Origin: an uncultured Nitrososphaerota archaeon
GTDB taxonomy: Archaea; Thermoproteota; EX4484-205; JAAOZO01
Direction of reading: 5' to 3'
Assembly: GCA_964408285.1 (NCBI GenBank)
Contig: CAYOYV010000017.1
Coordinates: 1 to 33,686 of the forward strand
DNA length: 33,686 nt
Both the position numbers and the translations under genes were made by a program. A model generated the notes under the pieces. The model did no database searches. It was given only the letters and a program-made list of their open reading frames with translations, and was not told the DNA's origin. Shown piece after piece: positions 9,467 to 33,447 of the stretch. Each line of letters begins with the position of its first letter. The first letter of the stretch is position 1.

Positions 9467-9647
9467 GGGGGTATGGTCTAACCAGGCAAGACGATAGTAG
9501 AAGACCCGTCAAGGGCTCCAGCCAGAGAAATGGTTTTTCCGACCTTGCAAAAGGGATGAGGTGAGGTTGGAGCTGGGTGAGACCCATTTAAGGGAGTTCA
9601 AGCATAGGGTCCGAAAGGCCCCTGCGGAAAAGATCTCCCTACCCCCA
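9467..9647 (+). tRNA. tRNA-Trp(CCA) with three introns (9496-9512 at 28/29; 9522-9581 at 37/38; 9602-9632 in T-loop)
   Basis: Acceptor GGGGGTA/TACCCCC, D-stem GTCT/AGAC, spliced anticodon stem ATGGG/CCCAT, T-stem GGGAG/CTCCC, spliced T-loop TTCAAAT. Confidence 0.88.
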
Positions 9648-9723
9648 CATACACCAAAGGATTTATGGTATGCCAGTAAGTTGTATGACATAAATCCTGC
9701 CCTTCTGCTGCATTATTCGAAAG

Positions 9724-10182
9724 ATGTCCCCTTCATTTGAGAGTCAATCCGTAATCCCCCTAGTATTGCTGAGTGACCAAAGAACCTGGATTCACCGGTA
9801 CATTAGGCCGAATTCCTTGTTGGTCCCGTTCTATGATGTTTGGGGAGATAGCAATACTCGGGCCATCGCGAGTCGTCATAGGGACATTCACGATCTCTTG
9901 GGTTTCAGGGGTCCAATAGGCCTTTCGAGCATAGGTCCTGACGATTATGTCGTGAGCGAGGCCTACTTCTCGGATTTCGTCAGATTTTCAACGGAGAGCA
10001 ATTTCGATTACGTAGTGGCTTGGGATATGCCAACGTACGCCGACTGGCCTTCGGATATCTCCTTCAAAAACACGATGTGGAAGATTTATCAAGAGTATAA
10101 GGAAAAGAAGCTAACCAAAGAGGACATAAAGGAAATCAAAGGGAGATCAAGATCGCTCCAATCTAACGTCATACTTCTCTAA
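9724..10182 (+). pseudogene. Internally deleted cassette remnant: TGT-like fragment fused to LAGLIDADG-like C-terminus
   Basis: DIHDLLGFRGPIGLSSIGPDD..FDYVVAWDMPTYAD matches 31618-33447 (DIHSYLNFEGNILLSSIMPDE..FDGAIAWDSPAYAD); KIYQEYKEKKLTKEDIKEIK matches the tail of 30269-31621 (RLYEVYTKYRGRKLTDEEIQDIR). Confidence 0.8.
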
Positions 10183-10494
10183 GAATTCTTCCAGATCCTG
10201 AGGAGACTTGGCGAACAGAGCAGGCTTCCAATTGCCATCTTTCCCGGCTACCACCCACTTCATGACTCTTTCGGCATGGTACATCAAGAATGCCAACTCG
10301 CGAGTATCCCTAATCATGATCCCGCGATCCTTGAGAAACTTTAGCATTTCTTCTTCGTTGATGTAGTCTTTCCTGTAATGCAGGAATAAGTCTTCAAAGA
10401 GTTGTCTGACATCTTTATCAGAGGGCCCTTTGATGTCTCTTGCTTTCACCAATGCCAGAGTCTTTAATGAGGACTGAAATATAAGCACTCCCAA
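10147..10494 (-). CDS. Small protein, probable distant homolog of the cassette-B third gene
   Basis: LFEDLFLHYRKDYINEEEMLKFLKDRGI aligns with LVSEAFNHYGRHKLFENEFIKYFRGKGM. Confidence 0.6.
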   Translation of the reverse strand: MGVLIFQSSLKTLALVKARDIKGPSDKDVRQLFEDLFLHYRKDYINEEEMLKFLKDRGIMIRDTRELAFLMYHAERVMKWVVAGKDGNWKPALFAKSPQDLEEFLEKYDVRLERS

Positions 10495-10563
10495 TTCTAA
10501 TAATGTCCTCGAAAACGCCTACTGCGAATCTCCCTACCCTCACAATCACGTCAGGGATACGAC

Positions 10564-11244
10564 CTAGCTTCGCTTGACCCAAGTACCGATTTTCTTTCCT
10601 GAGATCACTTCTGCTATATCTTGGAAGCGAGGCCCGACGAACACCAGTTGCACGCTAGCCCTGCGGAGTATCTCAAATGCGACCAAATCCAAGGGCCTGT
10701 ACTCCCCTGCCTCAGACTTTCCAGTTGCGACAATCAGGTCGAATAGTTTGTCAAACGTGATTTCCTTAAGTAACTTCGCCCTTGGATTCTTATTGGGGTC
10801 TGAATCATATATCCCGTCGACTTCCATGCTTTTGACGAAGAGGTTCGCTTTGACTGTTTCTGCTGCAATTGCGGCGACGGCGTCTGTTGAATGTCCAGGG
10901 GTGAATCCTCCCGTGCAGACAACATCGTAATTGTCAAACGCCTCCTTCAATTGATCAACATCCTCTGCTGGTTTCGGATAGGCGATTTCACCCAGGGTGC
11001 CTATCAACAGTCTTGCATTCAACCTCGTCATCCCTATCCCTAGCATGTCTGCGAACACATTATCGCAACCCAGTTTCTTGGCCGTCTGTATGTATTGTCT
11101 TGCTTGGGGGCCTCCTCCGACCACGGCCACTACCTTATTGTGTTTCGAGACAAGGCTCTTAACCAATCTGCCGGCAGATTCGTAGTTCCCGGGTACTAGT
11201 GGATACTGGACCAAAGAGTGTCCGAACTTGATGACCACCTTCAA
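10564..11244 (-). CDS. pyrH: UMP kinase
   Basis: VVIKFGHS, VVGGG, PGHSTDAVAA, VDGIYDSDP. Confidence 0.95.
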   Translation of the reverse strand: MKVVIKFGHSLVQYPLVPGNYESAGRLVKSLVSKHNKVVAVVGGGPQARQYIQTAKKLGCDNVFADMLGIGMTRLNARLLIGTLGEIAYPKPAEDVDQLKEAFDNYDVVCTGGFTPGHSTDAVAAIAAETVKANLFVKSMEVDGIYDSDPNKNPRAKLLKEITFDKLFDLIVATGKSEAGEYRPLDLVAFEILRRASVQLVFVGPRFQDIAEVISGKKIGTWVKRS

Positions 11245-11398
11245 CGTTGCTTACACCAAGATACTACGGTATTTAAAAAATGATTCCGTGCGCGCGCAGT
11301 AGGACCTGTAGAGACGGAGGCCGCTGAGAAGCATAGCCAAGACACTGTGTCCACAGGTGAGTTAAAAGATAAATGGAGGCCAGATTATTTCACACAAA

Positions 11399-12634
11399 AT
11401 GGAGGTTCTTGACGAGCGAAAGCTCGCTAGATTACTTAGATTGCTTAGAAACAAGAGGGGAAGAGGAACAGAGCTAATCAGCCTTTACATACCTGCAGGA
11501 AGACAGATTAGTGAAGTCGCGGAGAATCTCAGGGAGGAGCATGGAAAAGCTTCAAACATCAAATCGAGAACCACAAGGAAAAACGTTCAAGAGGCGATCA
11601 CAAAAACCATGCAAAGGCTCAAGCTATACGATAAAGCTCCGGAGAACGGGCTTGTGATATTTTGTGGTGCCATCCCCACCGGACCCCCGGGGGCCGAGAT
11701 CATAGAGTTCTATGAGCTAATCCCCCCTAAACCGGTTAACTTATCGTACTATAGTTGCGATGACAAGTTCTATCTGGATCCCCTGCTAGAACTGACCAGA
11801 CCAAAGGAAGTCCTAGGAGTTATTCTGGTAGACAACTCGGAGGCAACTGTGGCAAAAGTCGAGGGAAAGGAGGTTACGATACTGGGGAACTATACATCTG
11901 GAATTCCTGGCAAATCCAGCAAAGGTGGACAGTCGGCTAGAAGGTTCCAAAGATTGAGGGAAATGTATCTTGGCGAATTCTACCGTAGGATTGCCAACCA
12001 CGCCAATGAAGCCCTTCTGGCAATACCTAGGATGAACAAGGTCATAATTGGTGGACCGGGAAACACAAAGAATGAATTCATAGAAGGAGACTATCTGAAT
12101 TATCAAATAAAGGAGAAAATATCTGCAGTCGTTGACACATCTTACACGGAAGAACAAGGAGTGAAAGAAGCGCTCGAGAAAGCCGCGAGCAAACTAGAGA
12201 GGATAGAACTTGTTGAGGAAAGGAGGGCAGTTCAACGCTTCCTTTCCGAGATTGCCAAGGATTCCGGTTTGGCTGTCTACGGCGAAGACGATGTAAGATC
12301 GGCATTGAACGCACACAAGGCAGCGCGCCTCTTGCTGTCGGAAGGACTCAACACAGTCACGTTGAACGTCCATTGTACGAATTGCGGGTATGAAGCCAAA
12401 AGGAAGACAGCGGGAGAACAGCTCGACCTATTCGTGACCAACCTCAAATCGGAACGTTGCCCGAAGTGCGATTCTCAGTCTCTGATGGTAGGCGAAGTGA
12501 GTGGCGCCTTTGACGACTTTCTTGCCCTAGCGGAAAAATCCGGTGCCGAGATTGACATAATATCAACGAAAACCGAGGAGGGACAAATGCTCTTGAAAGG
12601 CTTCGGTGGAGTCGGAGCACTACTCAAGGTCTAA
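11399..12634 (+). CDS. prf1: Peptide chain release factor aRF1
   Basis: TELISLYIP, NIKS, YSCDDKF, GGQS, GFGGVGALL; CTNC..CPKC ribbon insert. Confidence 0.97.
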   Translation: MEVLDERKLARLLRLLRNKRGRGTELISLYIPAGRQISEVAENLREEHGKASNIKSRTTRKNVQEAITKTMQRLKLYDKAPENGLVIFCGAIPTGPPGAEIIEFYELIPPKPVNLSYYSCDDKFYLDPLLELTRPKEVLGVILVDNSEATVAKVEGKEVTILGNYTSGIPGKSSKGGQSARRFQRLREMYLGEFYRRIANHANEALLAIPRMNKVIIGGPGNTKNEFIEGDYLNYQIKEKISAVVDTSYTEEQGVKEALEKAASKLERIELVEERRAVQRFLSEIAKDSGLAVYGEDDVRSALNAHKAARLLLSEGLNTVTLNVHCTNCGYEAKRKTAGEQLDLFVTNLKSERCPKCDSQSLMVGEVSGAFDDFLALAEKSGAEIDIISTKTEEGQMLLKGFGGVGALLKV

Positions 12635-12670
12635 CAAAGATTAAAATCTTCATAGAGGTTCTAATCCCCG

Positions 12671-12817
12671 GGGCCGGTGGCCTAGCAACTCACAAAGATG
12701 AGCTAGTGTGGTTAAGGCGTCTGCTTCAAAGGACGATGCTGATAACCAAAGGCCGAGACCAGAAGATCGGCGGTTCGAAAGCCGTCGAAGGCATCGGAAA
12801 TCCGCCCCGGCCCACCA
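12671..12817 (+). tRNA. tRNA-Ile(GAT) with four introns (12688-12708, 12724-12737, ~12745-12757, 12780-12800); CCA encoded
   Basis: Acceptor GGGCCGG/CCGGCCC; after splicing: D-arm GCCTAGCATGGTTAAGGC, anticodon arm TCTGG-CTGATAA-CCAGA, T-arm GGCGG-TTCGAAT-CCGCC. Confidence 0.87.
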
Positions 12818-12948
12818 TCCCTATAATGAAATCGAACTGACAAATTGCATCTCAAACCTTTATTTCAGGTCTTTCGTGATCTCTTCTTAGTTCTTCAGAT
12901 GTTGGCGACTTTGTTTGTTTCGGAGTTTTTTTGAATCCGCGAGCTTGT

Positions 12949-13200
12949 CTAATCTTCTTCCCTGCCCACCAATTCAAACACAGTTTTGTGACCTATTATT
13001 TTCAATGGATTACCAGGTTCCCAGATTGGCTTTACTCCGATCGTTATAATATTCATTGCATCTGCCTCAATCCAGAGTTCATCTGTCTTCTCCTTGTTCA
13101 TTCCCTTGTTTTGGAAGTACTTCATAAATTCCTCTTTGAACAACTTGTTTCTGCCAAGATGTTGAAACGGCTCTTTTACTAGGGCTTCTATTTTTTCCTT
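12949..13200 (-). CDS. Small cassette-B protein (paralog of 30021-30272); start codon uncertain
   Basis: NIITIGVKPIWEPGNPLKIIGHKTVF vs NIITIGVKPLWEPGHPLNIIGQKTVF. Confidence 0.7.
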   Translation of the reverse strand, partial: KEKIEALVKEPFQHLGRNKLFKEEFMKYFQNKGMNKEKTDELWIEADAMNIITIGVKPIWEPGNPLKIIGHKTVFELVGREED

Positions 13201-14408
13201 TCTATCTTTCTTCTTATTTCGTCCACGTCTTTTCCCCACTCTATGTCTGGAAACAGTTCCTGCGTTTTTCGGCTTATCCAATCTATGCTTATGTCTGCAG
13301 GGTTTTCCTCTTTAATCTTTCTCAGCTCCTGAATTTCCTCGTCGGTGAGCTGCCTTCCTCTGTATTTCACGTAAGCTTGATATAGCCTTTCAAATCTCTC
13401 GGCCTTCCACGTGCCAGGCAGCAACCCATATTCATCGTGAATGATATCTATCAGGTGCGGCCTACTAGTTCGAACCTCCCAAAACGTTGTCACCCTACCG
13501 TATCTACTAACGTGAACCTTTGTGGGGGTTTCCCTAGGCCATTTTGCGTCCATGTGAGAATTACTCAATAGGGCTAATTCCTGATCAAGCAATCGGGGAG
13601 AAAGCCCTTTGACCGCCCTTAGAATCTCAGGATCTGTTATGCGTCGAATTGGTATCTTGCTTCCGTGTTCTTCCTCAATCCGTCTAAGCTCGTCTACCTG
13701 CATACTCGCGAGCCCGTCCGTTATGTCGACAGAGCGGCCCCATGCTATCCCAAGTCCTGCTCTTCTCTGCTTATTGACCGTCAGATAGAACCCCCCTTCT
13801 TCGTTGAGGGTAGCTTGAACATGATAACAGGTCATCCCTGAATCCCTTGCCATCTGAGGATCAAGCGAGGGATTGCTGACGGTCTTCTTACCACGCGGGA
13901 GACCCGAGGCTTCTAAGGCCCTTCCGAGAACAGAATTGGCAAAGATTTCCAAGGTGCGATGACCTAAGATGACTTCCTTAAGACTCGGTCCCCAGATTCC
14001 TTAACAGTGTCTGCGAAATGCTTAAGCATGACAGGATCTTGGTTGCTGTGGCTCAGCAAGCGTTTCTGCGTGATCGTTCCTTCGTTGAGGGCATGGGTCT
14101 TCATCTTAAGAAAACCTCTGCATTTCATGTCTATCGGGTAAGGATGTGGTTGTAAGATCACACCTCGTCTTTCGATTTCGTCTGGGCTGATCTTGAACCG
14201 GTCGCAAAACCGCTTAAGAGCGCCCACATTCATAGTTGTTTTTGTACGATCAACCAAATTCCGGTAGAGAGTTCGATCAGACTTATTCGATACTTTCTCT
14301 CTTAAGAAGCTTTTGATGTCGTAGTACCCGCACTCTCTCATCCCGCGTTCTATGATTCCCTGTACGTAGCTAGAATCAACCGTAACATGAGCCAATTTGG
14401 GCTCATCT
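13188..14408 (-). pseudogene. Frameshifted, N-truncated HTH-LAGLIDADG-like gene
   Basis: ORFs 13964-14530 and 13188-13952 together align to 30269-31621 (SNQDPV, GRALEASGLP, SNPSLDP, IDIIHDEYG.LPGTWKAERFERLY). Confidence 0.88.
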
Positions 14409-14583
14409 TGTCCAAATGGCAAATGTCGCATTCTTCTATGGCCTTCACTACTGGTGGCTTGAGTTCGCACCCCAAGAGTGGACAACGGTAGCCATGAGAT
14501 TCTATTCCATAGGATTCGAGACCGCCACAAATCTCAGCTATGAGGCAGACTCTGCAATCTCTATCGCATCCTGAAACTCTCAA
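14409..14583 (-). pseudogene. Remnant 8-Cys N-terminal domain of the cassette-B TGT-like gene
   Basis: GCDRDCRVC..ICGG...GYRCPLLGCEL...ECDIC matches the N-terminus of 31618-33447. Confidence 0.88.
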
Positions 14584-14827
14584 GGCAAGTCGCTAGAGAT
14601 GGTTGTAAGTCTTACGTCTTATTGCGCCTTAATGGCGATTGTACAGCCTTTCCTGAGTGGTCTAAACGTGTGGAGGATCTTTCTGAATAACGAATCGATA
14701 CATCTCGCGGGCTTCACCAATCACACTATCAATCAACGCTGACCGCACATCCATGAGCTATACGCTTGCTTGATGCCCACGGACGGGTTGCGGAAACCAT
14801 TAAAAAAGGCCAGAAGGCCCATAGTTT

Positions 14828-14916
14828 GGGCCGGTAGTCTAGCTTGGTACGGACGCTGGCTTCGCATTTCTGCCAGAAAAAGCCAGAGGTCGCGGGTTCG
14901 AGTCCCGCCCGGTCCA
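14828..14916 (+). tRNA. tRNA-Ala(CGC) with ~14-nt intron at 37/38 (14867-14880)
   Basis: Acceptor GGGCCGG/CCGGTCC with G3:U70, anticodon stem CTGGC/GCCAG, GGTTCGAGTCC. Confidence 0.92.
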
Positions 14917-14989
14917 CCTTCATCACCGCGGGCTTACGCATGGCATGAAGCACATCCGGAAAATGATTAAAAACGAACCCAACACGTGA

Positions 14990-15460
14990 ATGCAGATGAA
15001 GACGGCAAATCGGCAAAGTAACCTTGATGACAAGGACGAGATGATCCTAAATTCGCTTCGAGAAGATGCTAGCAAACCTCTGACGAAACTGTCTTCGAAG
15101 CTGGGGATTCCAAGGGCTACCTTGCAGGATAGAGTAAAGCGGCTGGTAAAGGAAGGGGTGATAAAGAGATTCACTATTGTCCCAGATTTCTCGAAGTTGG
15201 GCAAACCAGTAGCGGCCTTCATAATGGTTTCATTCACTCCCACTCCAAACGTTTCCCAGAGGGAATTGGCAAAGGAGATATCACTATTGCCGGAGGCAGA
15301 AGAGGTACATTTGATCTCAGGGCAGTGGGACATAGTCGTGAAGGTAAGAGTTTCCAGAGTTGAAGACATAGGCGAACTCGTTATAGACAGAATAAGGGTG
15401 ATGAAGGGCGTGGAGAAGACGGAAACCTGCGTAAGCTTTGGGACGATCAAGGAGGACTGA
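14990..15460 (+). CDS. Lrp/AsnC family transcriptional regulator
   Basis: LDDKDEMILNSLREDA HTH, GVIKRFT..PD..KLG, ISGQWDIVVKV. Confidence 0.95.
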   Translation: MQMKTANRQSNLDDKDEMILNSLREDASKPLTKLSSKLGIPRATLQDRVKRLVKEGVIKRFTIVPDFSKLGKPVAAFIMVSFTPTPNVSQRELAKEISLLPEAEEVHLISGQWDIVVKVRVSRVEDIGELVIDRIRVMKGVEKTETCVSFGTIKED

Positions 15461-15612
15461 AACAAAAGAGAAGAAAGCACAGCGAAATAAGGCGCAAATC
15501 GAATAAGAGTCCGGTCAAGTACCATTTCTAGCCTCTGGGGCCTTTCTTCTTCAATAATCAAGGGTCTAGAACAACATAGAGATATATTTCGTTAAATGGA
15601 GCTCTGGCGCGA

Positions 15613-16728: not shown

Positions 16729-16739
16729 CCAACTCCAAC

Positions 16740-17111
16740 AATCACGAATCGAACAGCTTTCTGAGCTATGAGTATTGCGCTCAACATCTAAGTCGACGAC
16801 ATCGAGTCGGTCCGTTTCCTCGACGCGCGTTGGAACAAAACCTGAGAACGGGACCATGGACATGAACTCCTTTCTTATTGAGGGCATGTTAACGCCTCAT
16901 CGTATGTGATTACCACCTTTGGACAGTAAGACCTGACCATGCAAACTGAACGAGGATAGGTGATTCCGCTATAGCATGCACCTTTCAAGCATAGTGAGAC
17001 TACACAATTCCGGGTAGTACAACCGAAGCACGAATTCTCAAAATAAGGACAACTGCGGCATCTTATTCCGCACTCTCCGTTCTCCTTCAACGACTTAGTG
17101 ATTTCTACCAT
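16740..17111 (-). pseudogene. Remnant of cassette subtype A downstream of tRNA-Leu
   Basis: 16875-17111 aligns ungapped with the N-terminus of 1593-2735 (26/56 identities by hand, all 9 Cys). The frameshifted continuation MPSIR..FVP resembles MPRLR..FVP. Left boundary is approximate. Confidence 0.75.
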
Positions 17112-17295
17112 TGGTGAGATTATGCCTGAATCTGGTATGACTTGTGTTAATATTCCTGATGAATGTCAAGTTCACAGTTGATGCATACCAATAAGGGCGT
17201 GCTGTCACTCACTCGGTCATATTGTACAACAACTATCGTTTCTCTTATGCGGTCTATCCCTGTTGAGTTATCTCCGTGTTATATGTTGGTAAAAG

Positions 17296-17424
17296 TGCGG
17301 GAGCTGGGAATTTCAGGGGCTGTCCCCTTTGAACCCAGGAACCCCTTCGGGACAGGAGCCTCAGTCCTGCGCCTTAGACCTGGCTTGGCGATTCGGATAG
17401 GCATACTAAGTGCCTAACTCCCGC
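17296..17424 (-). tRNA. tRNA-Leu(GAG) with introns at 7/8 (17392-17417) and 59/60 (17310-17327)
   Basis: Acceptor GCGGGAG/CTCCCGC, anticodon arm CAGGA-CTGAGGC-TCCTG, long variable arm; BHB helices CGGG/TCCG and TTCA/TGAA. Confidence 0.9.
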
Positions 17425-17589
17425 ATCTCCCGCCGGATTATCCGGAGGTGCTACCGCTTTTTAACCTATTTCCATTCGTTGTCCCTGCTCCCTATCAACT
17501 CTCTCTGGTAGAACTTCAGATAATCGGGAGAATATTTCCTTCCAGAACTGGCAATACGCTTTATTAGCCATTTACCTTGCCGTAGAATA

Positions 17590-18798: not shown

Positions 18799-18964
18799 CC
18801 GAAGTATCTCTAATTGCTGCGCTATATAAGATGGGCCGCCCAATATGTGTCTTGTTCGTGCATGACTTTTCTGTTGCATAGAAGGAGGATCTAGTGGGGT
18901 GGCTACTCCAATTCATGCTTGATTCGTGTGACAGAAGAAGCGGCGTGTTATAGATATCCTAAGG

Positions 18965-21565: not shown

Positions 21566-22876
21566 TTGGAGGCCATCTCGTCCGCCTTCGCGGAAGCAAT
21601 TAGGAGATTCACCAGAAAACCATACATAACTGACCCCGACATAGAAGAACTCATCAGGGACATTCAGCGTTCGCTACTTAAAACCGATGTGCCTGTAGAG
21701 CTGGTGCTCAAACTATCAGAGGCAATGAGGGAGGCAGCCAAGAAAGAAGTGCCGGGCGCGTCAAGGAAGGATCTAGTGGTCAACTCGGTATACTCAGAAT
21801 TGACGAACCTAGTTGGCGGGGAACCGGCGAAAGTGGAGATAAAGCAAACGCCAAGTGTCTGGCTATTCGTGGGGATTCAAGGGTTTGGGAAAACCACAAC
21901 GCTCGCCAAGGTCGCCCTTTTCTACAGAAGGGCAGGAAAAAAAGTGGCAGTTATTTGCGCAGACACATTCCGTCCTGGTGCGTTCGATCAACTTAGAACC
22001 CTGTTAGAACCCATGGACGTACTCGTCCTTGGAGGCAAAATCGGGGAGAGCAGTCTTGATGTGATTAAGAACTCTCTGGAGAAATATAGATCGGCTTCGC
22101 CTCCTCCTGATCTGATCTTAGTCGACACAGCTGGCAGACACAAGGACGAGACCTCCTTGATGGAGGAATTATCTGCTATAACAGAGGTTACAAAACCAGA
22201 CGCTTCATTCCTTGTAATCGATGCGGCAATAGGCCAAAGGGCCAAGGCTCAAGCAGAGGCATTCGCCAAGGTGGTTCCAATAGCGTATGTAATCATAACA
22301 AAAATGGATGGTACCGCAAAAGGTGGAGGCGCTCTTGCCACGGTAGTGTCAACTGGAGCCAATATCCCCTTCATAGGAACTGGAGAAGACATCGAGGAAC
22401 TGGAGCCATTTGTGCCCATGGACTATGTTTCGAAGTTGATTGGCGTGGCAGATCTCAGGGCCATAATAGAAAGAGTCTCAAGGTCAATGAAGGGCATGAC
22501 TATTGAAAAGGCCAAAGCATTCGCTCTTGGCCGTTATTCATTAGAGGACTTCGTGGATCAAATGGATCAACTGAAAGGTAGTGATCTTTCATCAATGATA
22601 TCTAGGCTAATACCTGTTGGAGCTAAGGTGCCGAAGGACATCAAAGGGTTGACCGAGGGGAAAGTGAGGGCTTGGAAGGCCATTATCAATTCAATGAACC
22701 AAGAGGAGAAGCAATCCCCGAACGTGATGAATCCAGAAAGGATAAGGAGGGTAGCAAGGGGGTCAGGAAGGAGCGAAAGAGAGGTAAGGGAGCTCCTCGA
22801 TCAATACAAGAACTCAAGGAAGTTGGTCAAGAAATTCAGAGGGCTGAGGGGGATACCGGGTGTCGCTCGATTCTAA
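21566..22876 (+). CDS. srp54: Signal recognition particle protein Srp54
   Basis: GIQGFGKTT, DTFRPGA, DTAGRH, TKMDGTAKGGG, RIRRVARGSG. Confidence 0.96.
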   Translation: MEAISSAFAEAIRRFTRKPYITDPDIEELIRDIQRSLLKTDVPVELVLKLSEAMREAAKKEVPGASRKDLVVNSVYSELTNLVGGEPAKVEIKQTPSVWLFVGIQGFGKTTTLAKVALFYRRAGKKVAVICADTFRPGAFDQLRTLLEPMDVLVLGGKIGESSLDVIKNSLEKYRSASPPPDLILVDTAGRHKDETSLMEELSAITEVTKPDASFLVIDAAIGQRAKAQAEAFAKVVPIAYVIITKMDGTAKGGGALATVVSTGANIPFIGTGEDIEELEPFVPMDYVSKLIGVADLRAIIERVSRSMKGMTIEKAKAFALGRYSLEDFVDQMDQLKGSDLSSMISRLIPVGAKVPKDIKGLTEGKVRAWKAIINSMNQEEKQSPNVMNPERIRRVARGSGRSEREVRELLDQYKNSRKLVKKFRGLRGIPGVARF

Positions 22877-24164
22877 GAGAGTCCATCCTGTCCTATCGAA
22901 GGCCTATCAGGTGATATCAAATCATCCACTGTGTAACCACTGCTTGGGAAGACAGTTCCGCCTCCTCAATGAGGAACAGGCCAACGAGACACGGGGCAGC
23001 TCGATCAAAGATGTCCTCTTCTTGGAATTCAGGGACTCCTTAAGGAACAGAAGGGCTTGGGCCTTGAGGGGACTCAGAACTCTCGCTCGTTCGGGGTATG
23101 GTCCCGCCTCGACAGAATTCCTGAAGGCCACGGGAAGGGAATTGGAGCCAAAACGCTGTTATATTTGTGATGATGCTTTGTTCAACACCATCGAGAACAC
23201 GGTCTCATCAATAATTCTTTTGGCAAGGGAGTATGACTTCAACTCGTTCCAAGTAGGCTCGTCGTTACCAAGGAAGATGATCAGACTGGATGACGAGATC
23301 AAAATGGAATACAAGCTGTCTCATGGTGAGAGCATAAAGACCGAATTCAATCGCATTATCAACAACGCAGTGTCAAAACTGACGGGGAAAACACACTCCT
23401 TCCATGACCCTGATTTGATGATAATGGCAGAGCCAGTCTCAGGTAGAGTGGTGATAGGGCCGGCTCCGGTTTACATTTACGGAAGGTACAGAAAATTGCA
23501 GGGCGGCATTTCGCAGACCAGGAAACGGGGAGCCGATGCTGCAGAATCCATAGAGGGAATGCTGGCCTCCATTCTGATCAAAATCTTCTGCGCCAAGGAC
23601 ATAAAATTCCATGGAGCCGGAAGGGAAGATGTCGATGCAAAAATGTTAGGGTCTGGCCGGCCGTTCATTGTCGAAATCTTGGAGCCCAAACTGAGGAACA
23701 CGGATCTGATGAAATTCACGGCGCAATTCAATGAGAAGTACAGCGGAATGGTGGAGATATTCGACCTCGAGCCTTCGTCCAAGGCGAAGGTGGTTGAGTT
23801 GAAACTTAAGGGGGAAAGGACGAGCAAATTATATAGAATCACGGTTAAGGTTCCAAGGATCCCTTCGAGGGAGGAGCTGGAGGAGACGGAGAGAAAGACA
23901 AAAGGTCTGGTCATAAGTCAAAGAACTCCAAAAAGGGTATCATGGAGACGTGCCGACAAGGTTAGAAAGAGGATGATAGCCTGGATCAAAATCGTACCTC
24001 TTCCGCCCGAAAGACTCGATGTGACTATTGAGGCGCAGGCCGGCACTTACATCAAGGAATTTGTTACTGGCGACGATGGCAGAACTAGTCCCTCTCTTAG
24101 AGAATTGTTAAATATGCCGGCAGAATGGGAGTCGCTCGAAGTATTGAATATATTGGGTGATTGA
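22860..24164 (+). CDS. pus10: tRNA pseudouridine(54/55) synthase
   Basis: LCNHCLGRQF, GRYRKL, FHGAGREDVD, QRTP.RV..RR, AGTYIKEFVTGD.GRT.PS. Confidence 0.96.
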   Translation: MSLDSKRVHPVLSKAYQVISNHPLCNHCLGRQFRLLNEEQANETRGSSIKDVLFLEFRDSLRNRRAWALRGLRTLARSGYGPASTEFLKATGRELEPKRCYICDDALFNTIENTVSSIILLAREYDFNSFQVGSSLPRKMIRLDDEIKMEYKLSHGESIKTEFNRIINNAVSKLTGKTHSFHDPDLMIMAEPVSGRVVIGPAPVYIYGRYRKLQGGISQTRKRGADAAESIEGMLASILIKIFCAKDIKFHGAGREDVDAKMLGSGRPFIVEILEPKLRNTDLMKFTAQFNEKYSGMVEIFDLEPSSKAKVVELKLKGERTSKLYRITVKVPRIPSREELEETERKTKGLVISQRTPKRVSWRRADKVRKRMIAWIKIVPLPPERLDVTIEAQAGTYIKEFVTGDDGRTSPSLRELLNMPAEWESLEVLNILGD

Positions 24165-24456: not shown

Positions 24457-24459
24457 ACG

Positions 24460-24795: not shown

Positions 24796-24884
24796 ATTAG
24801 CGCAGGGAAAACTTTGATCGAACGCGGGCCTCTTGATTTGAGGCGTCGTGTCAGGAAGGCATTGTTGGATTCTAATTCGAGGCA

Positions 24885-26210: not shown

Positions 26211-26223
26211 GGCACGACCCAAG

Positions 26224-26580
26224 ATGGCTTGGGAGAGAGTTCATCTGAGACGGGCCGTCGAGGATCTCCTTTCTGAATACGGAATTAGTCTGAAGGACCT
26301 CTTAAACGCGATGGACGAAGAAAAGGAGTCCGTCAGGGAGTCGCTGCAAAGAATAGCCTTCCTCTCGGAGGAGCAACTCATCCTCATAGAGAGAAAACTG
26401 AAGACGACCGAAATAAATTACCTGGTTTTTGTGATTCAGGCATTCTACGTGATAAACCAGACTGGCCTTTACAAGAACCTAGTTTTGATTCCAGAGAAAG
26501 ATTATGTTATGGAAGGAAGAAAGGCTAGCTTCGATGGCGTAGTCGCGGTTTCAAAAGCCCTTGGGCTTGGCATTGAATAG
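26224..26580 (+). CDS. Hypothetical protein
   Basis: 118-aa ATG ORF 13 nt downstream of asnS on the same strand. Confidence 0.7.
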   Translation: MAWERVHLRRAVEDLLSEYGISLKDLLNAMDEEKESVRESLQRIAFLSEEQLILIERKLKTTEINYLVFVIQAFYVINQTGLYKNLVLIPEKDYVMEGRKASFDGVVAVSKALGLGIE

Positions 26581-26705
26581 AATTGGCAAAGGCATATCAG
26601 AGGTCAGATTCCATCACGGCATTTTGTCCGGACTCTGATTATCGATCCACCAGTTTAGCTTAGGAATACGTTGGTGTTTTCAATCCTGAGAAACGGGTTC
26701 GAGAG

Positions 26706-26779
26706 GGCCACCGCCGGGATTTGAACCCAGACGCCAGGCTCCACAGGCCTGCGGACTACCAAATTATCCAACAGTGGCC
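26706..26779 (-). tRNA. tRNA-His(GTG), intronless, genomically encoded G-1
   Basis: G-GCCACTG/CGGTGGC-C, anticodon arm CAGGC-CTGTGGA-GCCTG, GGTTCAAATCC. Confidence 0.93.
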
Positions 26780-27303
26780 TCGCGTTGGAACCAAGGACGG
26801 GAGTAATATCTCTTACTCATTTGGCCGCTTCAACATGCAACAAGATCTCCAGAGAATCAATCTGCATCCTCACTAATTCACGTTCACTTGCAATTCATGC
26901 ACAATACAGGTATCTCTGTGTTGACAGGGAGTCTGAAATGCTACCTCGTTCTTTTCCTCTTCGGTTTTACTAGCATATTTCTTTCATTCGTGACCTTCAG
27001 CATTCCTTCTGGCGCGAATACATCCTCCACGGGCGTGCGCGCGCACACTGAAGCGGTTGCTGCGAGATCAAGGATTGTGCCCGAGTCAGGTGGCTTCTTG
27101 AGAGTGATGGTATGATTGTCCCGAGGTCGTTTGAACACGTTCTAGAATCAATCGCGCGCACTGTCGACCTCAAGTTTCATTAGGTAACCGTAACGCAACA
27201 GGGAATAACCCGCCCGTCTTGTCGACGAACCCAGGGGATTACCTTCTTGTGGGGCAACAAATGCTTTTAGGCTCGCAGCCCATTGATTCCTTGATGAAGA
27301 GGC

Positions 27304-27993
27304 TTGATGGAGTTTCTCAGAATGGCATTCAGGGATGCCTACTCCATCCTCATCGATCCCTTCCGTTTCTTCAAGTCGATGAGCGAAGACAAGGAGACGA
27401 GACCGCGCAGCATCCGATATATCGCGACTTGGTTCATTTTGTTCTGCGTTATATCTGCCATGCTTCTGCCTCTATGGAAACCATTGACAGACTGGACGAT
27501 TGCAACTTCTGTCGTGAAGATACCAGATCTGCATTTCGCCAACGAAGTGTATCTAAGCATGGCGCTCTATCTATATCCTCTGGTCTACTCATATTTGGGT
27601 GATCACTTCTGGACTTGGTTAGCTTGCATTCCGCTTCTCATGATAGACTCTCTGGCGACTCTTCTCCTTGGTGCGGGTATCTTCCATCTGTTTTTCAAAT
27701 ATGTTCTACGTGGAAATGGGCGCTACAAAGATGCCGTTGCAGTGGTGGCCTTCGGAGACCTTCCCTCCCTGCTGTTTGGCTTTCTCCCCTACTCTGCAGC
27801 CGTAGGTCTTGCTTGGACATCGCTCCTGCAAATGCCCGTGGGATTTCATTATATGTACGGGGTTCCGTGGAAACGTGCGTTCATACCTTACGTGCTGTGG
27901 ACGACGTTCATTTTCGTCTCTTGGAGAACTAGGGGAACAGTCAGCTCGGCTGGCTTGCTGCCCATGATACCTAGGGGGCCGTATTTGCCATAG
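27304..27993 (+). CDS. Yip1-family membrane protein
   Basis: ILIDPFRFFKSM start, GAGIFHLF....GNGRY motif, several hydrophobic helices. Confidence 0.75.
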   Translation: MMEFLRMAFRDAYSILIDPFRFFKSMSEDKETRPRSIRYIATWFILFCVISAMLLPLWKPLTDWTIATSVVKIPDLHFANEVYLSMALYLYPLVYSYLGDHFWTWLACIPLLMIDSLATLLLGAGIFHLFFKYVLRGNGRYKDAVAVVAFGDLPSLLFGFLPYSAAVGLAWTSLLQMPVGFHYMYGVPWKRAFIPYVLWTTFIFVSWRTRGTVSSAGLLPMIPRGPYLP

Positions 27994-28210
27994 CCAAAGC
28001 TTTGTGGCCCTCGTGCCGTTGTAGGCTTGGCATGCCAATTTGCTCGGCGCTTGAGGAGGAAGCAACGACGGTCCAACGTGATCCAATCCGCAGGGCACTC
28101 GCGTGATTAGAGGGCGTTCCAGAGGGATGCCCGCCTGGCGTCTCGCCTTAATAATGGTCAGGACCGTCCGTAATATCCTTTTCTACCCTGTTTTGCCTAA
28201 CATCACAGCA

Positions 28211-29764
28211 ATGGTCGTGCTCTGCATTGGCTTCGAGGTACATCAACCAAGGAGGCTAAACAAGAGCTTTAGGGTTCAGGCTCCCGATCCAAGGGACATC
28301 GCCGAGGCTGAGGGTTCATATTTCGACCTGAGACTTGACAAAGAGATATTCGAGAGAGTCTATGAGAAATGCTACAAACCAACAACCAACATGCTTGCGG
28401 AAGCGATTGAAAGAACGAAGGACTCCGAGAGGCCCTTCAAGATCTGCTACAGCTTCTCAGGCCTTTTCCTCGAGCAATTGCTCCTCAATCACCCAGAGCT
28501 CATAGAAACAATACGATCGATGGCAAAGACAGGAAACGTCGAGCTTCTGTGTCAGACCTACTATCATTCTTTGGCAAGCATATACTACGACGACATGTCG
28601 GAATTCAGAGACCAGGTAAAAGAACACAAGAAAGCAATAAGACGGACATTCGGGTTCGAGCCACGAATCTTTGAGAACACGGAATTCATATACAATAACT
28701 TAATTGCGAAGGAAATTCAGGCTCTCGGATTCTCTGGCATAATTACAGAAGGGTCAGATAGATTGCTCCATGGCTCCTCTCCTCACTTCGTATATCGGCC
28801 GATAGTGGCTAAGAGCCTAAGGGTTTTGACGAGAGACTACAGATTGTCTGACGACATCGGGTTCAGGTTCTCATCGCTCTCTCTCACTGCTGAGAAATTT
28901 ATCGACTGGGTCGCCTCTGTGGCAGAGCCGCTCGTCCTCATTTTCGTTGACTATGAGACATTCGGGGAACATGTCTGGCCTGAAGCCGGCATTCGTGACT
29001 TTCTGAAGCAACTGCCACATGAGATAGAAAGATGCCGCAACGTGGTCCCGGAGACTGCCTCCGAGATAGTGGGCACAATTCCACCCGCGGGAGATGTAGA
29101 TGTGTATGAGCACGGCAAGACCATATCTTGGGCAGACGAAAGGAGGGACCTGAGTGCTTGGCTTGGGAACGAGATGCAAAGATCCACATTTGGCTCGGTG
29201 ATTTCACTCTCGAGACCAGCGAGAACAATCGGAGGGGAATTCCTCAGAATCTGGCGCTTATTGCAGACAAGCGACAACTATCACTATATGTACACAGGGA
29301 CCGGGGGTCCGGCGGATGTGCACTCCTACTTCTCTGGACCCGTGGGTTCTCCTTTGGATGTGTATGTAGCATTCAGCAATATCCTGGTCAGTTTTCAGGG
29401 AATGATATCGAACGAAATGATAAAGCCCAAGACTCTGGAAAGGAAACTCCTCAAGGGCTGGTCTGAGGAAAAGGCGTTTTCGTTCTTCTTAGATGTGGGC
29501 AAGCCTCTGAATCTCAAAGCCTCGGGATATCTGGAGTTCCATAACGTCGCAAAACGTGTATCGGAAGATAGCATCGCGTTTCACCTCTACAATGGCGACT
29601 TTGAGAAATGGTTCTACGACGTTTTCGGGGATGAATTGCTTTCCCGACAAATTCATGAACTGCGGACAAAGAAGATAGGGGGAATAAGGCTGAAGAAAGC
29701 GATCGTAACCCTAGTTGCAAAAAGGATTGATGAGATAAGAAATACACTAGGTCGTGCTTCTTGA
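28211..29764 (+). CDS. Glycoside hydrolase family 57 (alpha-amylase-like) with C-terminal DUF5752-like domain
   Basis: FEVHQP, QTYYHSL, FENTEFIY, FVDYETFGEH, LQTSDNYHYM; tail SIAFHLYNGDFEKW. Start reassigned to ATG 28211. Confidence 0.92.
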   Translation: MVVLCIGFEVHQPRRLNKSFRVQAPDPRDIAEAEGSYFDLRLDKEIFERVYEKCYKPTTNMLAEAIERTKDSERPFKICYSFSGLFLEQLLLNHPELIETIRSMAKTGNVELLCQTYYHSLASIYYDDMSEFRDQVKEHKKAIRRTFGFEPRIFENTEFIYNNLIAKEIQALGFSGIITEGSDRLLHGSSPHFVYRPIVAKSLRVLTRDYRLSDDIGFRFSSLSLTAEKFIDWVASVAEPLVLIFVDYETFGEHVWPEAGIRDFLKQLPHEIERCRNVVPETASEIVGTIPPAGDVDVYEHGKTISWADERRDLSAWLGNEMQRSTFGSVISLSRPARTIGGEFLRIWRLLQTSDNYHYMYTGTGGPADVHSYFSGPVGSPLDVYVAFSNILVSFQGMISNEMIKPKTLERKLLKGWSEEKAFSFFLDVGKPLNLKASGYLEFHNVAKRVSEDSIAFHLYNGDFEKWFYDVFGDELLSRQIHELRTKKIGGIRLKKAIVTLVAKRIDEIRNTLGRAS

Positions 29765-29839
29765 TACACAGAGGGACAATGAAGCGTATCAGATTCGAGA
29801 AAAGGCTTTATCTCAGGTGGAGGGCATCGGTTGCGCGGT

Positions 29840-29929
29840 GGGCCGGTGGTTTAAAGGTAGAATACCCGACTTGCACTCGGGAGGCCTAGGGGTTCGAGAT
29901 GGTTGGTCCCGAAAATCCCCTCCGGTCCA
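29840..29929 (+). tRNA. tRNA-Ala(TGC) with T-loop intron at 59/60 (29899-29915)
   Basis: Acceptor GGGCCGG/CCGGTCC with G3:U70, anticodon arm CCCGA-CTTGCAC-TCGGG, BHB helix TTCG/CGAA. Confidence 0.9.
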
Positions 29930-30020
29930 CTTCGTTTCTTGCTTTAATCCATCCGAATCCCAGTTAGCTCTTAGGCGGATTCTTGGGCTCAACGATTTAC
30001 CTAAAATTGGGCGACTTTGC

Positions 30021-30272
30021 CTAGTCCTCTCCTTTTCCCACTAGACTGAACACGGTCTTCTGACCAATAATGTTCAATGGATGGCCGGGTTCCCATAGGG
30101 GTTTCACCCCGATCGTTATGATATTCAAACTCTGCGCTTTGGCCCAGAGTTTATCTATTTCGTCATCTCTCATTCCCTTACCTCGGAAGTACTTGATAAA
30201 CTCGTTTTCAAACAACTTATGTCTTCCATAGTGGTTAAACGCCTCTGACACGAGTGCTTTGATTCTCATCAT
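30021..30272 (-). CDS. Small cassette-B protein (~83 aa), possibly winged-helix
   Basis: ATGA overlap with the upstream stop; conserved with the 12949 copy. The fold is a guess. Confidence 0.75.
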   Translation of the reverse strand: MMRIKALVSEAFNHYGRHKLFENEFIKYFRGKGMRDDEIDKLWAKAQSLNIITIGVKPLWEPGHPLNIIGQKTVFSLVGKGED

Positions 30273-31621
30273 TTCCTCTGCAGCATTCGCTTTATTCTTT
30301 CTATATCCTCTGCCCACTCTGTCCCTGGGAAGAGCTTCTGCGTTTTCTCGCTTACCCAAGCCGCACTTATATCAGGCGGGTTTTCTTCTTTAATCTTTCT
30401 GATGTCCTGAATCTCCTCGTCCGTGAGCTTCCTGCCTCTATATTTCGTGTAGACCTCATATAGCCGCTCGAACCTTTCAGCCTTCCAAGTGCCCGGGAGC
30501 ATTCCATATTCATCATGAATTATGTCAATCAGGTCAGACCTCAGGGTATGGATCTCCCAAAACGATGTCACTCTGTGACCCGTGCTGACATGAACTCTCG
30601 TTGGATGTTCTTCAGGCCATTCCTTCTCCGGGTGAGAAGTTTCCAACAGAGCCAATTCTTGGTGTAATGGTCGTGGGGGTTTCTCCTTTATTATCCTCAG
30701 AATTTCAGGGTCCTCTATACTTCGGATGGGTATCTTCCTTCCGTGTTCTTTCTCCGTCTTCCGAAGTTGTTCAATCTGTTCGCTCGAGAGTTCGTCAGTT
30801 ATGTCCACCGCTCGGCCCCACGCTATCTCGAACCTCGCTCTTCTCTTATGAACACCTAGGGAATGCCACCCTTCCTCGGTGAGGGCAGCTTGGATGTGAT
30901 AGCGCTTTGACTTTGGATCTTTTTCCACCATCGGATCAAGGGAAGGATTACTAATGGTCTTCCTACCACCCGGGAGACCTGAAGCCTCCAGAGCCCTCCC
31001 GAGAGCACTATTAGCTTCAATTTCCATTGCACCCGGCCTCAAACGGGGTTTTGTGATGATGATTCCTCCTGCTTCCCTGACCGCATCCGCAAAATACTTG
31101 AGCAGGACAGGATCTTGGTTGCTGTATTTTAGCCTGTTTTTTGAAGAGTTCGTTCCTTCGTCGAGGATGTGGGTCCTCATCTTGACGAAACCTCTAGATC
31201 TCATGTTAATTGGGTAGAAATGCGGTTCTGAGATAACTCCTCGTCGTTCGATCTCATTCAAACTAATGTTAAGTTGCTCACAAAACCTTCCAAGAACGCC
31301 TACAGTTACGGCTTTTTCCTTCTTATCGATCCATCTCTTGTAAAGAACCCGATCTCCCCTCTTCAATCCCTTCTCTCTAAAGAAATCACTGATGCTCGTA
31401 GCTCCTGATCTCTTCATCTCGCGTTCTATGCTTTGTCTGACGTAACTAGAATGGATGGTGATGCGTGTCATTTTCGGCTCGTCATACCAGTGATAGTATC
31501 CGCTCGATTCTACCTCCTTCTTCTCACGTCTAATTGCTTCGAAAAATTCCGCCCTAGATTGCCTAGATCCATAACGACTGAGTTTCCATCTGAGCGCGAG
31601 CCGGAATTGCCCCAACCTCAC
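30269..31621 (-). CDS. HTH + divergent double-motif LAGLIDADG-like endonuclease
   Basis: HTH-like VTVGVLGRFCEQLNISLNEIE; motif-like KMRTHILDEGT..LKYSNQDPVLLKYF and YHIQAALTEEGWHSL. Confidence 0.65.
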   Translation of the reverse strand: MRLGQFRLALRWKLSRYGSRQSRAEFFEAIRREKKEVESSGYYHWYDEPKMTRITIHSSYVRQSIEREMKRSGATSISDFFREKGLKRGDRVLYKRWIDKKEKAVTVGVLGRFCEQLNISLNEIERRGVISEPHFYPINMRSRGFVKMRTHILDEGTNSSKNRLKYSNQDPVLLKYFADAVREAGGIIITKPRLRPGAMEIEANSALGRALEASGLPGGRKTISNPSLDPMVEKDPKSKRYHIQAALTEEGWHSLGVHKRRARFEIAWGRAVDITDELSSEQIEQLRKTEKEHGRKIPIRSIEDPEILRIIKEKPPRPLHQELALLETSHPEKEWPEEHPTRVHVSTGHRVTSFWEIHTLRSDLIDIIHDEYGMLPGTWKAERFERLYEVYTKYRGRKLTDEEIQDIRKIKEENPPDISAAWVSEKTQKLFPGTEWAEDIERIKRMLQRK

Positions 31622-33447
31622 TCTCTCCGCTTTATCTCTATCCTACCATCCCCCGTGAGCACAATTGAGGTACCAATATCCTCCTTCTTCACTTGTATCC
31701 ATTCCTGAGGGCCTCCTAGAGTCCAGCAACCTGTCGAAGCCACGCACTTGTCTTTGTCTATGAACGCCCTAAGCAGATGTCCCATTATTAGCCAACTCGC
31801 GTTGGCTTCTCTCCTAGCATCCTCCATCTTGTCCATCTCCACATCAGTGATTTTGGTAGGATCCCTGACTATCCTATGACCATGTTCCGCAATCACTACC
31901 TCTCCGTTGGCCAGCTTTATGACAAGACTTTCTTTCGCGGACCTGTAGAACCTATAGATATCGAGGATTGTTTGCTGTAAGGCTTCGTCGTTCCGCTTGT
32001 TCCAAAGTATTGGCTTGGGTTTGCCTCCCATCGTTAAGGTATCTAGGGCTGACAGAAGCTGCTCTTGATTGCCATCGCTGCATCCTTTGACGACCAAGAC
32101 TGAAGCTCCTATTTCCCTCAGCACCTTGAGCAAGATACCGGCTTCGGCCAAATCCGGAGTGCCGCTCTCGAGATCAAACGTATTTCCTAAGAACACAACA
32201 TAAGGTGGTTTCTCGTCTCTTAAGAATGCCATTAGGTCGTCCAGTAGGGCTCTGCCAGTCCATAGGTAAATATCAGAAACGAAAAGGGCTCTTTCACTCC
32301 TATCTAAGATCAGATCATAGGTCTGTACATCAGGAGATAGAGTGCCTGAAGACAGATTGGCGAGATAACTAAGATTGTGTTTGGTCTTCGCCCCAAGACT
32401 TGCCATTAATCCCTTAGGCCCAGTGCTGGTGCAAATATGGCATCTACATTCAACAAACTTAGAAGTGGCATCAATATTGCCCCTGTTAGAGTAGAGAATA
32501 CCTGCTTCGGCATCTAAGTGCCAACTGAAACCGGCTACGGATAGTTTCGGGGGCTCAAAGAAGGTCTGCCTGACGAATGCGAGCGAGGAAGGCTTCATAA
32601 CGCCGATTAACAGAACAGAATCCGCTAACTTCCGCATATGCCTGAAATATGTATAGAGGATCTGCCTCGCAGCACCATCCATCTTGATCCTAGGCATGTA
32701 CTCTGAGGCATGAAGAGCCATGGACTTTATCCCGCTCTTGGCAAGTATTCTTGTGCTGAATTCGATCTGCCTCTCTGCGTTTCCTTTGACCAGACCTATT
32801 ACGGGTATCTCGTCCTCGATCAATTCATGGGTGAGTAGGAGTCCTTTCATCAGATTGATCCAAGCGTCATACAACGGGATATCAGCATACGCAGGGGAAT
32901 CCCACGCTATGGCCCCGTCAAAGCCACCCTGTTTTATCATCTTCATGAAATAATGGAAGACACTTGGTTCCGTGAGGAATTCATCTGGCATTATTGAAGA
33001 AAGAAGTATATTGCCCTCAAAATTGAGGTACGAGTGAATATCTCCGGCCTGAGAAACACTTCTCAATAAACCTGCATCGAATAGCTCTTCGAATCCGATT
33101 ATGACAGCTCCAATGTCGAGAGAATCCCAGCAAAAACTCGATGGATTCCTTAGGGATATCATAGGAACAACCTTCGGTAATTCGATCGGCCGAGCTCTCA
33201 ATTCCTCGATATCTACCACTTGAGAAACGAGATCAGAAACCTCTTGAGGACTCAGGTCCCATGTAATCCTGCCTAAACGGCAAAGGCTACATTCATGCAT
33301 CTTAATCATGGCCGGGGTTTCGAGTTCGCATCCAAGGAAGGGGCACCGGTAGCCACGTGACTCCAGCTCGTAGGCTTCACGACCACCGCAAATACCGATG
33401 ATCGCGCATGTCCCACAATCTCTATCGCATCCGGCAAGTCTCAACAT
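31618..33447 (-). CDS. Cys-rich + TGT-like barrel + degenerate calcineurin-like metallophosphoesterase fusion
   Basis: 8-Cys N-terminus; PVIGLVKG, VAGFSW, CRCHIC...KHNL; then FVSDIY, FLGNTFD, KGCSD, EHGH, MGHLL. Confidence 0.78.
   Translation of the reverse strand: MLRLAGCDRDCGTCAIIGICGGREAYELESRGYRCPFLGCELETPAMIKMHECSLCRLGRITWDLSPQEVSDLVSQVVDIEELRARPIELPKVVPMISLRNPSSFCWDSLDIGAVIIGFEELFDAGLLRSVSQAGDIHSYLNFEGNILLSSIMPDEFLTEPSVFHYFMKMIKQGGFDGAIAWDSPAYADIPLYDAWINLMKGLLLTHELIEDEIPVIGLVKGNAERQIEFSTRILAKSGIKSMALHASEYMPRIKMDGAARQILYTYFRHMRKLADSVLLIGVMKPSSLAFVRQTFFEPPKLSVAGFSWHLDAEAGILYSNRGNIDATSKFVECRCHICTSTGPKGLMASLGAKTKHNLSYLANLSSGTLSPDVQTYDLILDRSERALFVSDIYLWTGRALLDDLMAFLRDEKPPYVVFLGNTFDLESGTPDLAEAGILLKVLREIGASVLVVKGCSDGNQEQLLSALDTLTMGGKPKPILWNKRNDEALQQTILDIYRFYRSAKESLVIKLANGEVVIAEHGHRIVRDPTKITDVEMDKMEDARREANASWLIMGHLLRAFIDKDKCVASTGCWTLGGPQEWIQVKKEDIGTSIVLTGDGRIEIKRRE

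Follow-up and report, generated by a model that had tools for sequence, protein, structure and literature searches.

A LAGLIDADG gene cassette adjoins tRNA genes with T-loop introns in one archaeal lineage

Cassettes and tRNA genes on the contig

The 33.7-kb contig CAYOYV010000017.1 of an uncultured sediment archaeon, analysed over its entire length and called the window below (contig C17 of the 1.82-Mb, 46-contig assembly G000), carries eight tRNA genes and several copies of a three-gene cassette. The cassette comprises gene A, a protein of tRNA-guanine transglycosylase (TGT) fold with or without a putative metallophosphoesterase domain; gene B, a two-motif LAGLIDADG protein; and gene C, a small protein of no known family. 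Long and short forms exist, and the copies are multiple and often decayed. Four of the tRNA genes are interrupted after the sixth T-loop base, by 31 nt in Trp, 21 nt in Ile-GAU, 18 nt in Leu-GAG and 17 nt in Ala-UGC. A cassette or remnant lies directly 3' of each of the four, as an earlier sequence-only reading of this DNA had reported; our searches confirmed the positions and the copies.

The copy 3' of tRNA-Ala(UGC) is an intact long cassette (30021–33447, minus strand) with gene C (30021–30359, 112 aa), gene B (30269–31621, 450 aa) and gene A (31618–33447, 609 aa), all on the minus strand. The tRNA itself (29840–29929, plus strand) has its 17-nt intron at position 59/60 (about 29899–29915; bulge-helix-bulge (BHB) motif H4 h3). 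A decayed long-type cassette (12939–14592, minus) follows tRNA-Ile(GAU) (12671–12814, plus; 21-nt T-loop intron at about 12780–12800, with further introns in the D-loop and anticodon arm). It retains C at 12952–13281, B in pieces at 13191–14000 and 13967–14533, and A at 14353–14592, with 72–74% nucleotide identity to the intact cassette, A being reduced to its first ~60 codons and B broken. 3' of tRNA-Trp (9467–9647, plus; several introns, the 31-nt T-loop intron at about 9603–9633 in a register of 58/59 or 59/60 assigned by eye), the remnant spans 9694–10544 and consists of a gene A fragment (9694–10179, plus; E 7e-46) joined to a scrap of B, a C-like open reading frame (ORF; 10150–10518, minus) and an orphan copy of the tRNA-Trp 3' end (10528–10544). 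tRNA-Leu(GAG) (17296–17424, minus; 18-nt T-loop intron at about 17310–17327) reads from the minus strand, which makes the gap of about 570 nt at 16729–17295 its 3' flank. There, 131 nt 3' of the tRNA, a weak trace remains of the Cys-rich N-terminus of gene A (16878–17165, minus; E 4e-4 to 7e-4).

The other four tRNA genes have uninterrupted T-loops and no cassette 3', and the companion claim that ordinary genes follow them held as well. tRNA-Ser(GCU) (2864–2963, plus), free of a T-loop intron, is followed by CysRS; tRNA-Thr(UGU) (4721–4824, plus), with introns outside its intact T-loop, by a ferredoxin-type gene; tRNA-Ala(CGC) (14828–14916, plus), with the canonical intron only, by two ORFs without family or paralogue; and the intron-free tRNA-His (26706–26778, minus) by a 118-aa ORF of no family and then an Asp/Asn-type tRNA synthetase. 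The sequence-only reading had the four 3' copies right and overlooked cassette genes on the 5' sides of two of these tRNAs. An intact short-type cassette (63–2735, minus), recovered with jackhmmer/hmmsearch, holds A-short (1593–2735, TGT-like), B' (685–1614, LAGLIDADG) and C'' (63–713); A-short starts 111 nt away from the tRNA-Ser 5' end, in divergent orientation, and C'' ends at the contig start. The gene A remnant of the Ile cassette, also missed, lies 236 nt from the 5' end of tRNA-Ala(CGC). Just past the C'' stop, positions 37–62 (minus) resemble the T-stem/acceptor 3' end of a tRNA and match no tRNA in the assembly.

Because most window tRNA genes carry one to three short insertions, standard tools detect few of them: ARAGORN recovered 2/8, and Rfam 3/8 at gathering score and 5/8 at E ≤ 10. 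Genome-wide, ARAGORN with introns allowed gave about 21 genes, several of them wrong, and the Rfam tRNA model 28 matches at E ≤ 10. We therefore used a custom scan for a T-stem, T-loop start, optional insertion, T-stem and 7-bp acceptor match. It demands a contiguous G-N-T-C-N-A T-loop start and misses other cases; Lys-CUU and Thr-CGU were added by eye. A second script excised candidate BHB introns, whose splice sites lie in two 3-nt bulges separated by a 4-bp helix, and then required that ARAGORN recognise the spliced product. tRNAs at contig ends were assessed through 55-nt contig overlaps. Between them, ARAGORN, Rfam, the custom scan and the splicing script confirmed all eight window tRNA genes. 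The predicted splice sites of Ile, Leu and Ala-UGC fit BHB geometry, with 4/4 central pairs and three outer pairs; no full splice solution was returned for tRNA-Trp. For 11 of the 12 T-loop introns in the script, the first or second solution had a central helix of 3–4 out of 4 pairs plus flanking pairs in 59/60 geometry and yielded an ARAGORN-recognised tRNA. The T-loop introns of Trp and Lys-CUU were judged by eye.

Predicted folds of the cassette proteins

Gene A encodes a Cys-rich N-terminus, a TIM barrel of TGT fold that bears a CxCxxC..H zinc site and, at the C-terminus, a putative metallophosphoesterase. The barrel was assigned by a profile match to the archaeosine TGT (ArcTGT) 1iq8 (E 1.6e-6), in which the zinc motif and an HN pair are aligned, and by an AF2 model (predicted local distance difference test score (pLDDT) 88.8) for which Foldseek ranks 1–45 are all TGT. 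The 609-aa protein has no Pfam TGT match, and the short form reaches 16.4 bits, below the gathering cut-off of 26.3; short-form A (1593–2735) gives weak TGT/DUF4417 matches. In the hidden Markov model (HMM) alignment of gene A, both catalytic aspartates of Pyrococcus TGT (Asp95 and Asp249) correspond to Ser positions, with the invariant Asp155 and Asp312 at distances of 5 and 9 residues. At the C-terminus, PF12850 is precomputed for many homologues and LpxH chains match at E 0.002–0.02; our own Pfam scan of the window protein was blank.

Gene B is modelled (AF2, pLDDT 87.6) as a two-motif LAGLIDADG endonuclease fold with extra helical domains. Its top Foldseek hit is 2dch (E 2.9e-5), followed by 7qsu, 7qss, 1um2 and I-DmoI entries. 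The best structural matches are PI-SceI, I-DmoI, intein endonucleases and I-Tsp061I, an endonuclease of an archaeal intron. An alignment of 21 sequences shows little or no variation at E153-G154 and E247/E248-G249, which were assigned to the two motifs by eye. The short-form B' passes the Pfam LAGLIDADG_3 cut-off of 22.5, with 37.7 bits for the window copy (685–1614) and 60.6 bits for a relative's (L041). On these models and profiles, the cassette is predicted to encode a homing-type nuclease, as had been proposed.

The short-form proteins measure ~370 aa (A-short), ~310 aa (B') and ~219 aa (C''). Long-form A, B and C have no Pfam or NCBIfam match, and C'' has no usable ESM Atlas match. An integrase-driven element was the first reading considered and was dropped, as no integrase family was among the profile matches of any cassette ORF. 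The literature searched, a limited collection, contained no description of a LAGLIDADG/TGT gene pairing or of such cassettes; within it, the partnership of a TGT-fold protein fused to a putative phosphoesterase with a LAGLIDADG enzyme is undescribed.

Association in this genome

Across the assembly, 13 of the tRNA genes detected have a T-loop intron and 24 do not. Cassettes or their remnants occur within 200 nt 3' of 6/13 intron-bearing genes (Trp, Ile, Leu-GAG, Ala-UGC, initiator Met (iMet) and Lys-CUU) vs 0/24 of the others, so that every 3' cassette in this genome (6/6) adjoins a T-loop-intron tRNA. The hypergeometric p value, by our own arithmetic, is ~7e-4 with the discovery set included; outside the window the split is 2/9 vs 0/20 (p ~0.09). 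Introns found only in this genome have a cassette in 4/5 cases vs 1/7 of those shared with relatives (p ~0.045, own arithmetic). This genome holds about ten A-family loci, several of which are fragments.

Three loci outside the window deserve description. tRNA-Lys(CUU) (G000 C4:36647–36782, plus) seemingly has two T-loop insertions, after 55 and after 59, and is followed by a partial cassette. Thr-CGU (G000 C14:110–211, plus), counted among the 24, has an apparent 17-nt insertion between T-stem and T-loop (53/54, not 59/60) and comes after tRNA-Leu(CAA), a contig join lying between the two. A long-form gene A of full length is assembled across a 55-nt contig overlap (G000 C26:1–753 joined to C38:2–1168); the ORFs downstream of it do not resemble B or C, and upstream there is a non-coding stretch of ~600 nt in which GTTCCGG-like words recur.

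Sister genomes, wider relatives and metagenomes

Five genomes of the same family (including G002, G004 and G005) allow orthologous loci to be compared. In sister genera, cassette-free orthologues lacking the T-loop intron were found for Ala-UGC in three genomes, Leu-GAG in three, iMet in one and Lys-CUU in four. Cassette HMMs found nothing in those orthologue loci apart from a C'' gene by the 5' end of the G005 tRNA-Leu. As the orthologues without cassette are also without intron, intron and cassette look co-gained at these four tRNAs. Gly-GCC has an intron and a convergent cassette in G002 and G004, and the intron alone in this genome. The Ile orthologue had no match in five relatives searched.

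The A family occurs in 21/41 genomes searched (G000 included), all of the same order, and in 0/15 searched same-phylum genomes outside it; the order name Bathyarchaeia is taken from a single source label (Candidatus Bathyarchaeia) on one gene A homologue. Relatives contain up to 16 A-family matches per genome, many with stops or in pieces. In a large protein collection, A and B each have only ~30 relatives, often on the same contigs. Among 60 fetched loci of relatives, 26 tRNAs have a cassette no further than 450 nt from the 3' end, in one of two orientations: co-directional (tRNA, then A) or convergent, with the C'' stop 8–13 nt from the tRNA end. In a rearranged form that five genomes from two families (L028, L029, L034, L036, L040) share at one and the same 75-nt tRNA, A, B' and the tRNA lie in this order on one strand, with C'' divergent, upstream of A. 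This form looks vertically kept and not recently mobile.

Gene B retrieved a further 56 loci from metagenomes. In the clade nearest to the window cassette, which is of the long type, 5/5 nearby tRNAs have a T-loop intron (Ala-GGC twice, Leu-UAA twice and Lys-UUU; three distinct tRNAs). A more distant clade (L155, L158, L161, L166, L175, L177, L182) has C followed by B, with no gene A detected; these loci often lie directly 3' of a tRNA with an intact T-loop.

Direct repeats at cassette borders

In relatives, cassettes are often bracketed by the full tRNA and an orphan of its 3' part: for 10/26 cassette-flanked tRNAs the last 20 nt recur on the same strand at the far cassette end. The control figure is 1/19 other tRNAs, and that one brackets a long-type cassette. 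The repeats begin in the anticodon arm, variable arm or T-stem, reach the tRNA 3' end and are up to ~55 nt long; some carry an attached piece of C''. These varied extents, at times with C'' pieces, indicate repeated insertions. At two loci (L007 1004–1333, L021 12523–12843), an intact cassette and the convergent tRNA are separated by C-terminal pieces of C'', as if a newer cassette had displaced an older one. At a Ser-CGA locus with a 24-nt T-loop intron (L016), the repeat is 46 nt long and runs from the final As of the T-loop through the entire intron and the 3' exon; its boundary lies at the 5' edge of the intron. A full tRNA at one cassette end and an orphan 3' copy at the other are the arrangement left by integration through a tRNA 3' segment that the element carries.

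A search of this genome for 3'-end repeats found the tRNA-Trp orphan (10528–10544; local alignment score 29 vs a maximum of 26 in 200 shuffles) and, besides it, two 3-mismatch matches upstream of control tRNAs. No orphan repeats were found at the metagenome long-type loci.

Interpretation and alternatives

It is firm that a multi-copy, decaying LAGLIDADG module targets the 3' part of tRNA genes and coincides with T-loop introns in this lineage; the intron–cassette link holds here and not in more distant relatives. Our preferred reading, to which we give a probability of about one half, is that the cassette is an integrase-less tRNA-targeting element with its insertion boundary in the T-arm, and that intron and cassette arrive or stay together in this lineage. 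The endonuclease would break the tRNA gene, and the element would enter by recombination through the tRNA 3' segment that it carries, so that one side would keep a complete tRNA and the other an orphan 3' fragment. In this reading, T-loop (59/60) BHB introns are a general trait of this archaeal family, and cassette-flanked tRNAs would carry them here because the element boundary lies in the T-arm. If the intron and 3' exon form part of the exchanged or kept segment in this lineage, intron and cassette would arrive, or be retained, together; the cassette would later decay and the intron persist. The intron may also mask the nuclease site, and it is plausible that it confers immunity.

Several observations weigh against this reading. 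The first group concerns relatives. In other families of the order, 22/26 cassette-flanked tRNAs have no T-loop intron and 4/26 have one (one of the 22 is separated from its cassette by another tRNA), so the intron is not required for cassette placement; in the distant metagenome clade, 0/12 tRNAs detected in cassette loci carry one. Conversely, the tRNA-Trp T-loop intron is present without a cassette in four relatives, the Trp cassette being seen only here. T-loop introns with no cassette within 1.5 kb occur in Arg-CCU (three relatives), Lys-UUU, Ser-CGA, Leu-CAA, Leu-UAA and others. Eight long-type loci of relatives have no tRNA within ~3.5 kb in an Rfam search at E ≤ 1, which has poor sensitivity for multi-intron tRNAs. 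Contigs of four other sediment metagenomes span the tRNA-Ala/cassette junction, with no joint that skips intron or cassette and hence no empty-site allele among them. Related genomes, moreover, are not independent samples.

The second group concerns this genome. No recombinase was identified among the cassette ORFs. The two homologous window cassettes have no common sequence between tRNA end and gene C, and the T-loop introns beside them share no sequence relationship. A Pro-GGG T-loop intron was gained here without any cassette, the long gene A copy on C26/C38 has no tRNA on the side sequenced, and 5/6 cassette loci lack an orphan repeat (Smith–Waterman scores at null level). The census holds 37 tRNA genes vs ~46 expected, and the intron/cassette table is incomplete because about nine expected genes were not found. 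The sequence-only reading had called for a test of the association in the whole genome and in relatives, and had proposed a coupling of intron and cassette. The former survives within this genome (6/13 vs 0/24) and fails among the cassettes of other families, most of which adjoin intact T-loops; the latter keeps the apparent co-gain in four tRNAs, set against frequent introns without cassettes and a family-wide Trp intron.

In a bolder form, which we regard as tentative and would not bet on, an undescribed integrase-less element would deliver or select the non-canonical T-loop introns of archaeal tRNA genes: the LAGLIDADG nuclease, paired with the TGT-like protein, would open the tRNA gene in the T-arm, the element would supply its own intron and 3' exon, and once the cassette had decayed the intron would stay as its footprint. 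tRNA intron gain would then have a concrete, assayable route.

An alternative that we think unlikely is collaborative homing. In T-even phages, a free-standing endonuclease gene spreads with a neighbouring intron (mobE/I-TevIII at nrdB). Applied here, as the sequence-only reading proposed, the LAGLIDADG enzyme would cut the quasi-palindromic T-arm of intron-less alleles, the 59/60 intron would protect, and both would co-spread. As in the phages, the nuclease gene lies outside the intron and beside an intron-bearing conserved gene, and the intron is proposed to break the nuclease site. A nuclease is present that, judged from its model, looks competent, all six 3' cassettes of this genome adjoin T-loop-intron tRNAs, four co-gains are apparent, and the L016 repeat boundary falls at the 5' edge of the intron. 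The system differs from the phage one in its intron, which is of the archaeal BHB type and interrupts a tRNA T-loop, in the TGT-like gene that accompanies the LAGLIDADG gene and in the duplication of tRNA 3' fragments; direct repeats of up to ~55 nt of tRNA are not expected from double-crossover homing. Most relatives' cassettes (22/26) also lack the intron, though 6/6 have it here, and alleles with intact T-loops would be cut by their own enzymes unless those enzymes have other targets. An immunity model thus cannot be general, because many cassette-flanked tRNAs have intact T-loops. The family-wide Trp intron with its cassette seen only here, and introns unrelated in sequence, further disfavour it.

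It also seems improbable that no causal link exists and that the overlap is a small-sample coincidence, inflated post hoc, in a family where T-loop introns are very common (about a third of tRNA genes) and cassettes settle at tRNA 3' ends for unrelated reasons. The split outside the window reaches only p ~0.09, introns without cassettes and cassettes without introns are both common, and orthologous loci inflate the counts. Such a coincidence would have to produce the 6/6 here, the Gly-GCC loci in two sister genomes and the agreement of three distinct metagenome tRNAs; it would also have to place four lineage-specific introns at cassettes and put an intron inside the L016 repeat. Coincidence nevertheless keeps some weight because independent counts are small and related genomes are not independent.

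Least credible, in our judgement quite improbable, is a non-selfish host operon that acts on tRNA and is for that reason kept by tRNA genes, chiefly those whose T-loop introns are awkward. In it, modification would fall to the TGT-like protein and maturase-like RNA binding to the LAGLIDADG protein, and the phosphoesterase would act on cyclic-phosphate ends. The tRNA-enzyme fold of A, the A-B'-tRNA arrangement with divergent C'' kept at one tRNA in five genomes of two families, and many intact copies would suit it, but many copies are fragments or stop-ridden, orphan tRNA repeats bracket the module, tRNA partners and orientation vary, and 0/15 same-phylum genomes searched outside the order carry it.

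Relation to known systems

The preferred reading, an integrase-less element bounded in the T-arm, has partial counterparts. DpdA-type TGT relatives insert 7-deazaguanines into DNA and, like gene A, are TGT-fold proteins encoded on a mobile or defence-like module; unlike in those systems, no Dpd partner genes were seen here, and gene A is fused to a predicted metallophosphoesterase and paired with a LAGLIDADG gene. I-DmoI and I-Tsp061I, of archaeal rRNA BHB introns, are among the best structural matches of gene B and share its host's domain of life and the kind of intron. Their genes lie inside the intron that is mobilised, whereas gene B lies outside a 15–31-nt intron and has extra N- and C-terminal domains.

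The excerpted text of Sugahara et al. 2012 (PMC3293823) describes a model in which a tRNA gene gains an intron when an element integrates that already has the intron in its attachment site; the case is a single locus with an intron at 24/25, a 5' tRNA fragment and a putative recombinase. A mobile element beside a tRNA gene, tRNA direct repeats and an intron gained with the element are common to that model and ours; a LAGLIDADG gene with no recombinase found, 3' fragments, recurrence at 59/60 and several loci set the present case apart from the one in those excerpts (PMC3293823). In SSV-type and pNOB8-type integration, as outlined in the same excerpts (PMC3293823), the 3' part of an archaeal tRNA gene serves as target, the tRNA is reconstituted and a repeat marks the far border. 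A tRNA 3' repeat at the far border is likewise present at 10/26 loci in relatives and 1/6 here (Trp). Unlike the integration types outlined there (PMC3293823), our cassettes have no tyrosine integrase family among their ORFs and a cargo of only three genes.

Intron gain at non-canonical positions of archaeal tRNAs is a standing question; a 2026 preprint on Asgard tRNA introns, in its excerpted text, leaves their mode of arrival open. The lineage described here combines a nuclease cassette at tRNA 3' ends, repeats that start in the T-arm and newly gained 59/60 introns, which suggests that the cassette offers a testable route. It supplies defined proteins and, as DNA substrates, defined intron-plus and intron-minus alleles.

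Other features of the window

tRNA-Ala(UGC) has an unusually weak D-stem (G-U and A-U pairs) compared with its orthologues in three relatives, and no second Ala-UGC gene was found. A gene for Pus10, the archaeal T-loop pseudouridine 54/55 synthase, lies at 22860–24164 (plus; Pfam Pus10_C and Pus10 THUMP) on the same contig as the four T-loop-intron tRNAs; its neighbourhood is probably unrelated to the T-loop introns.

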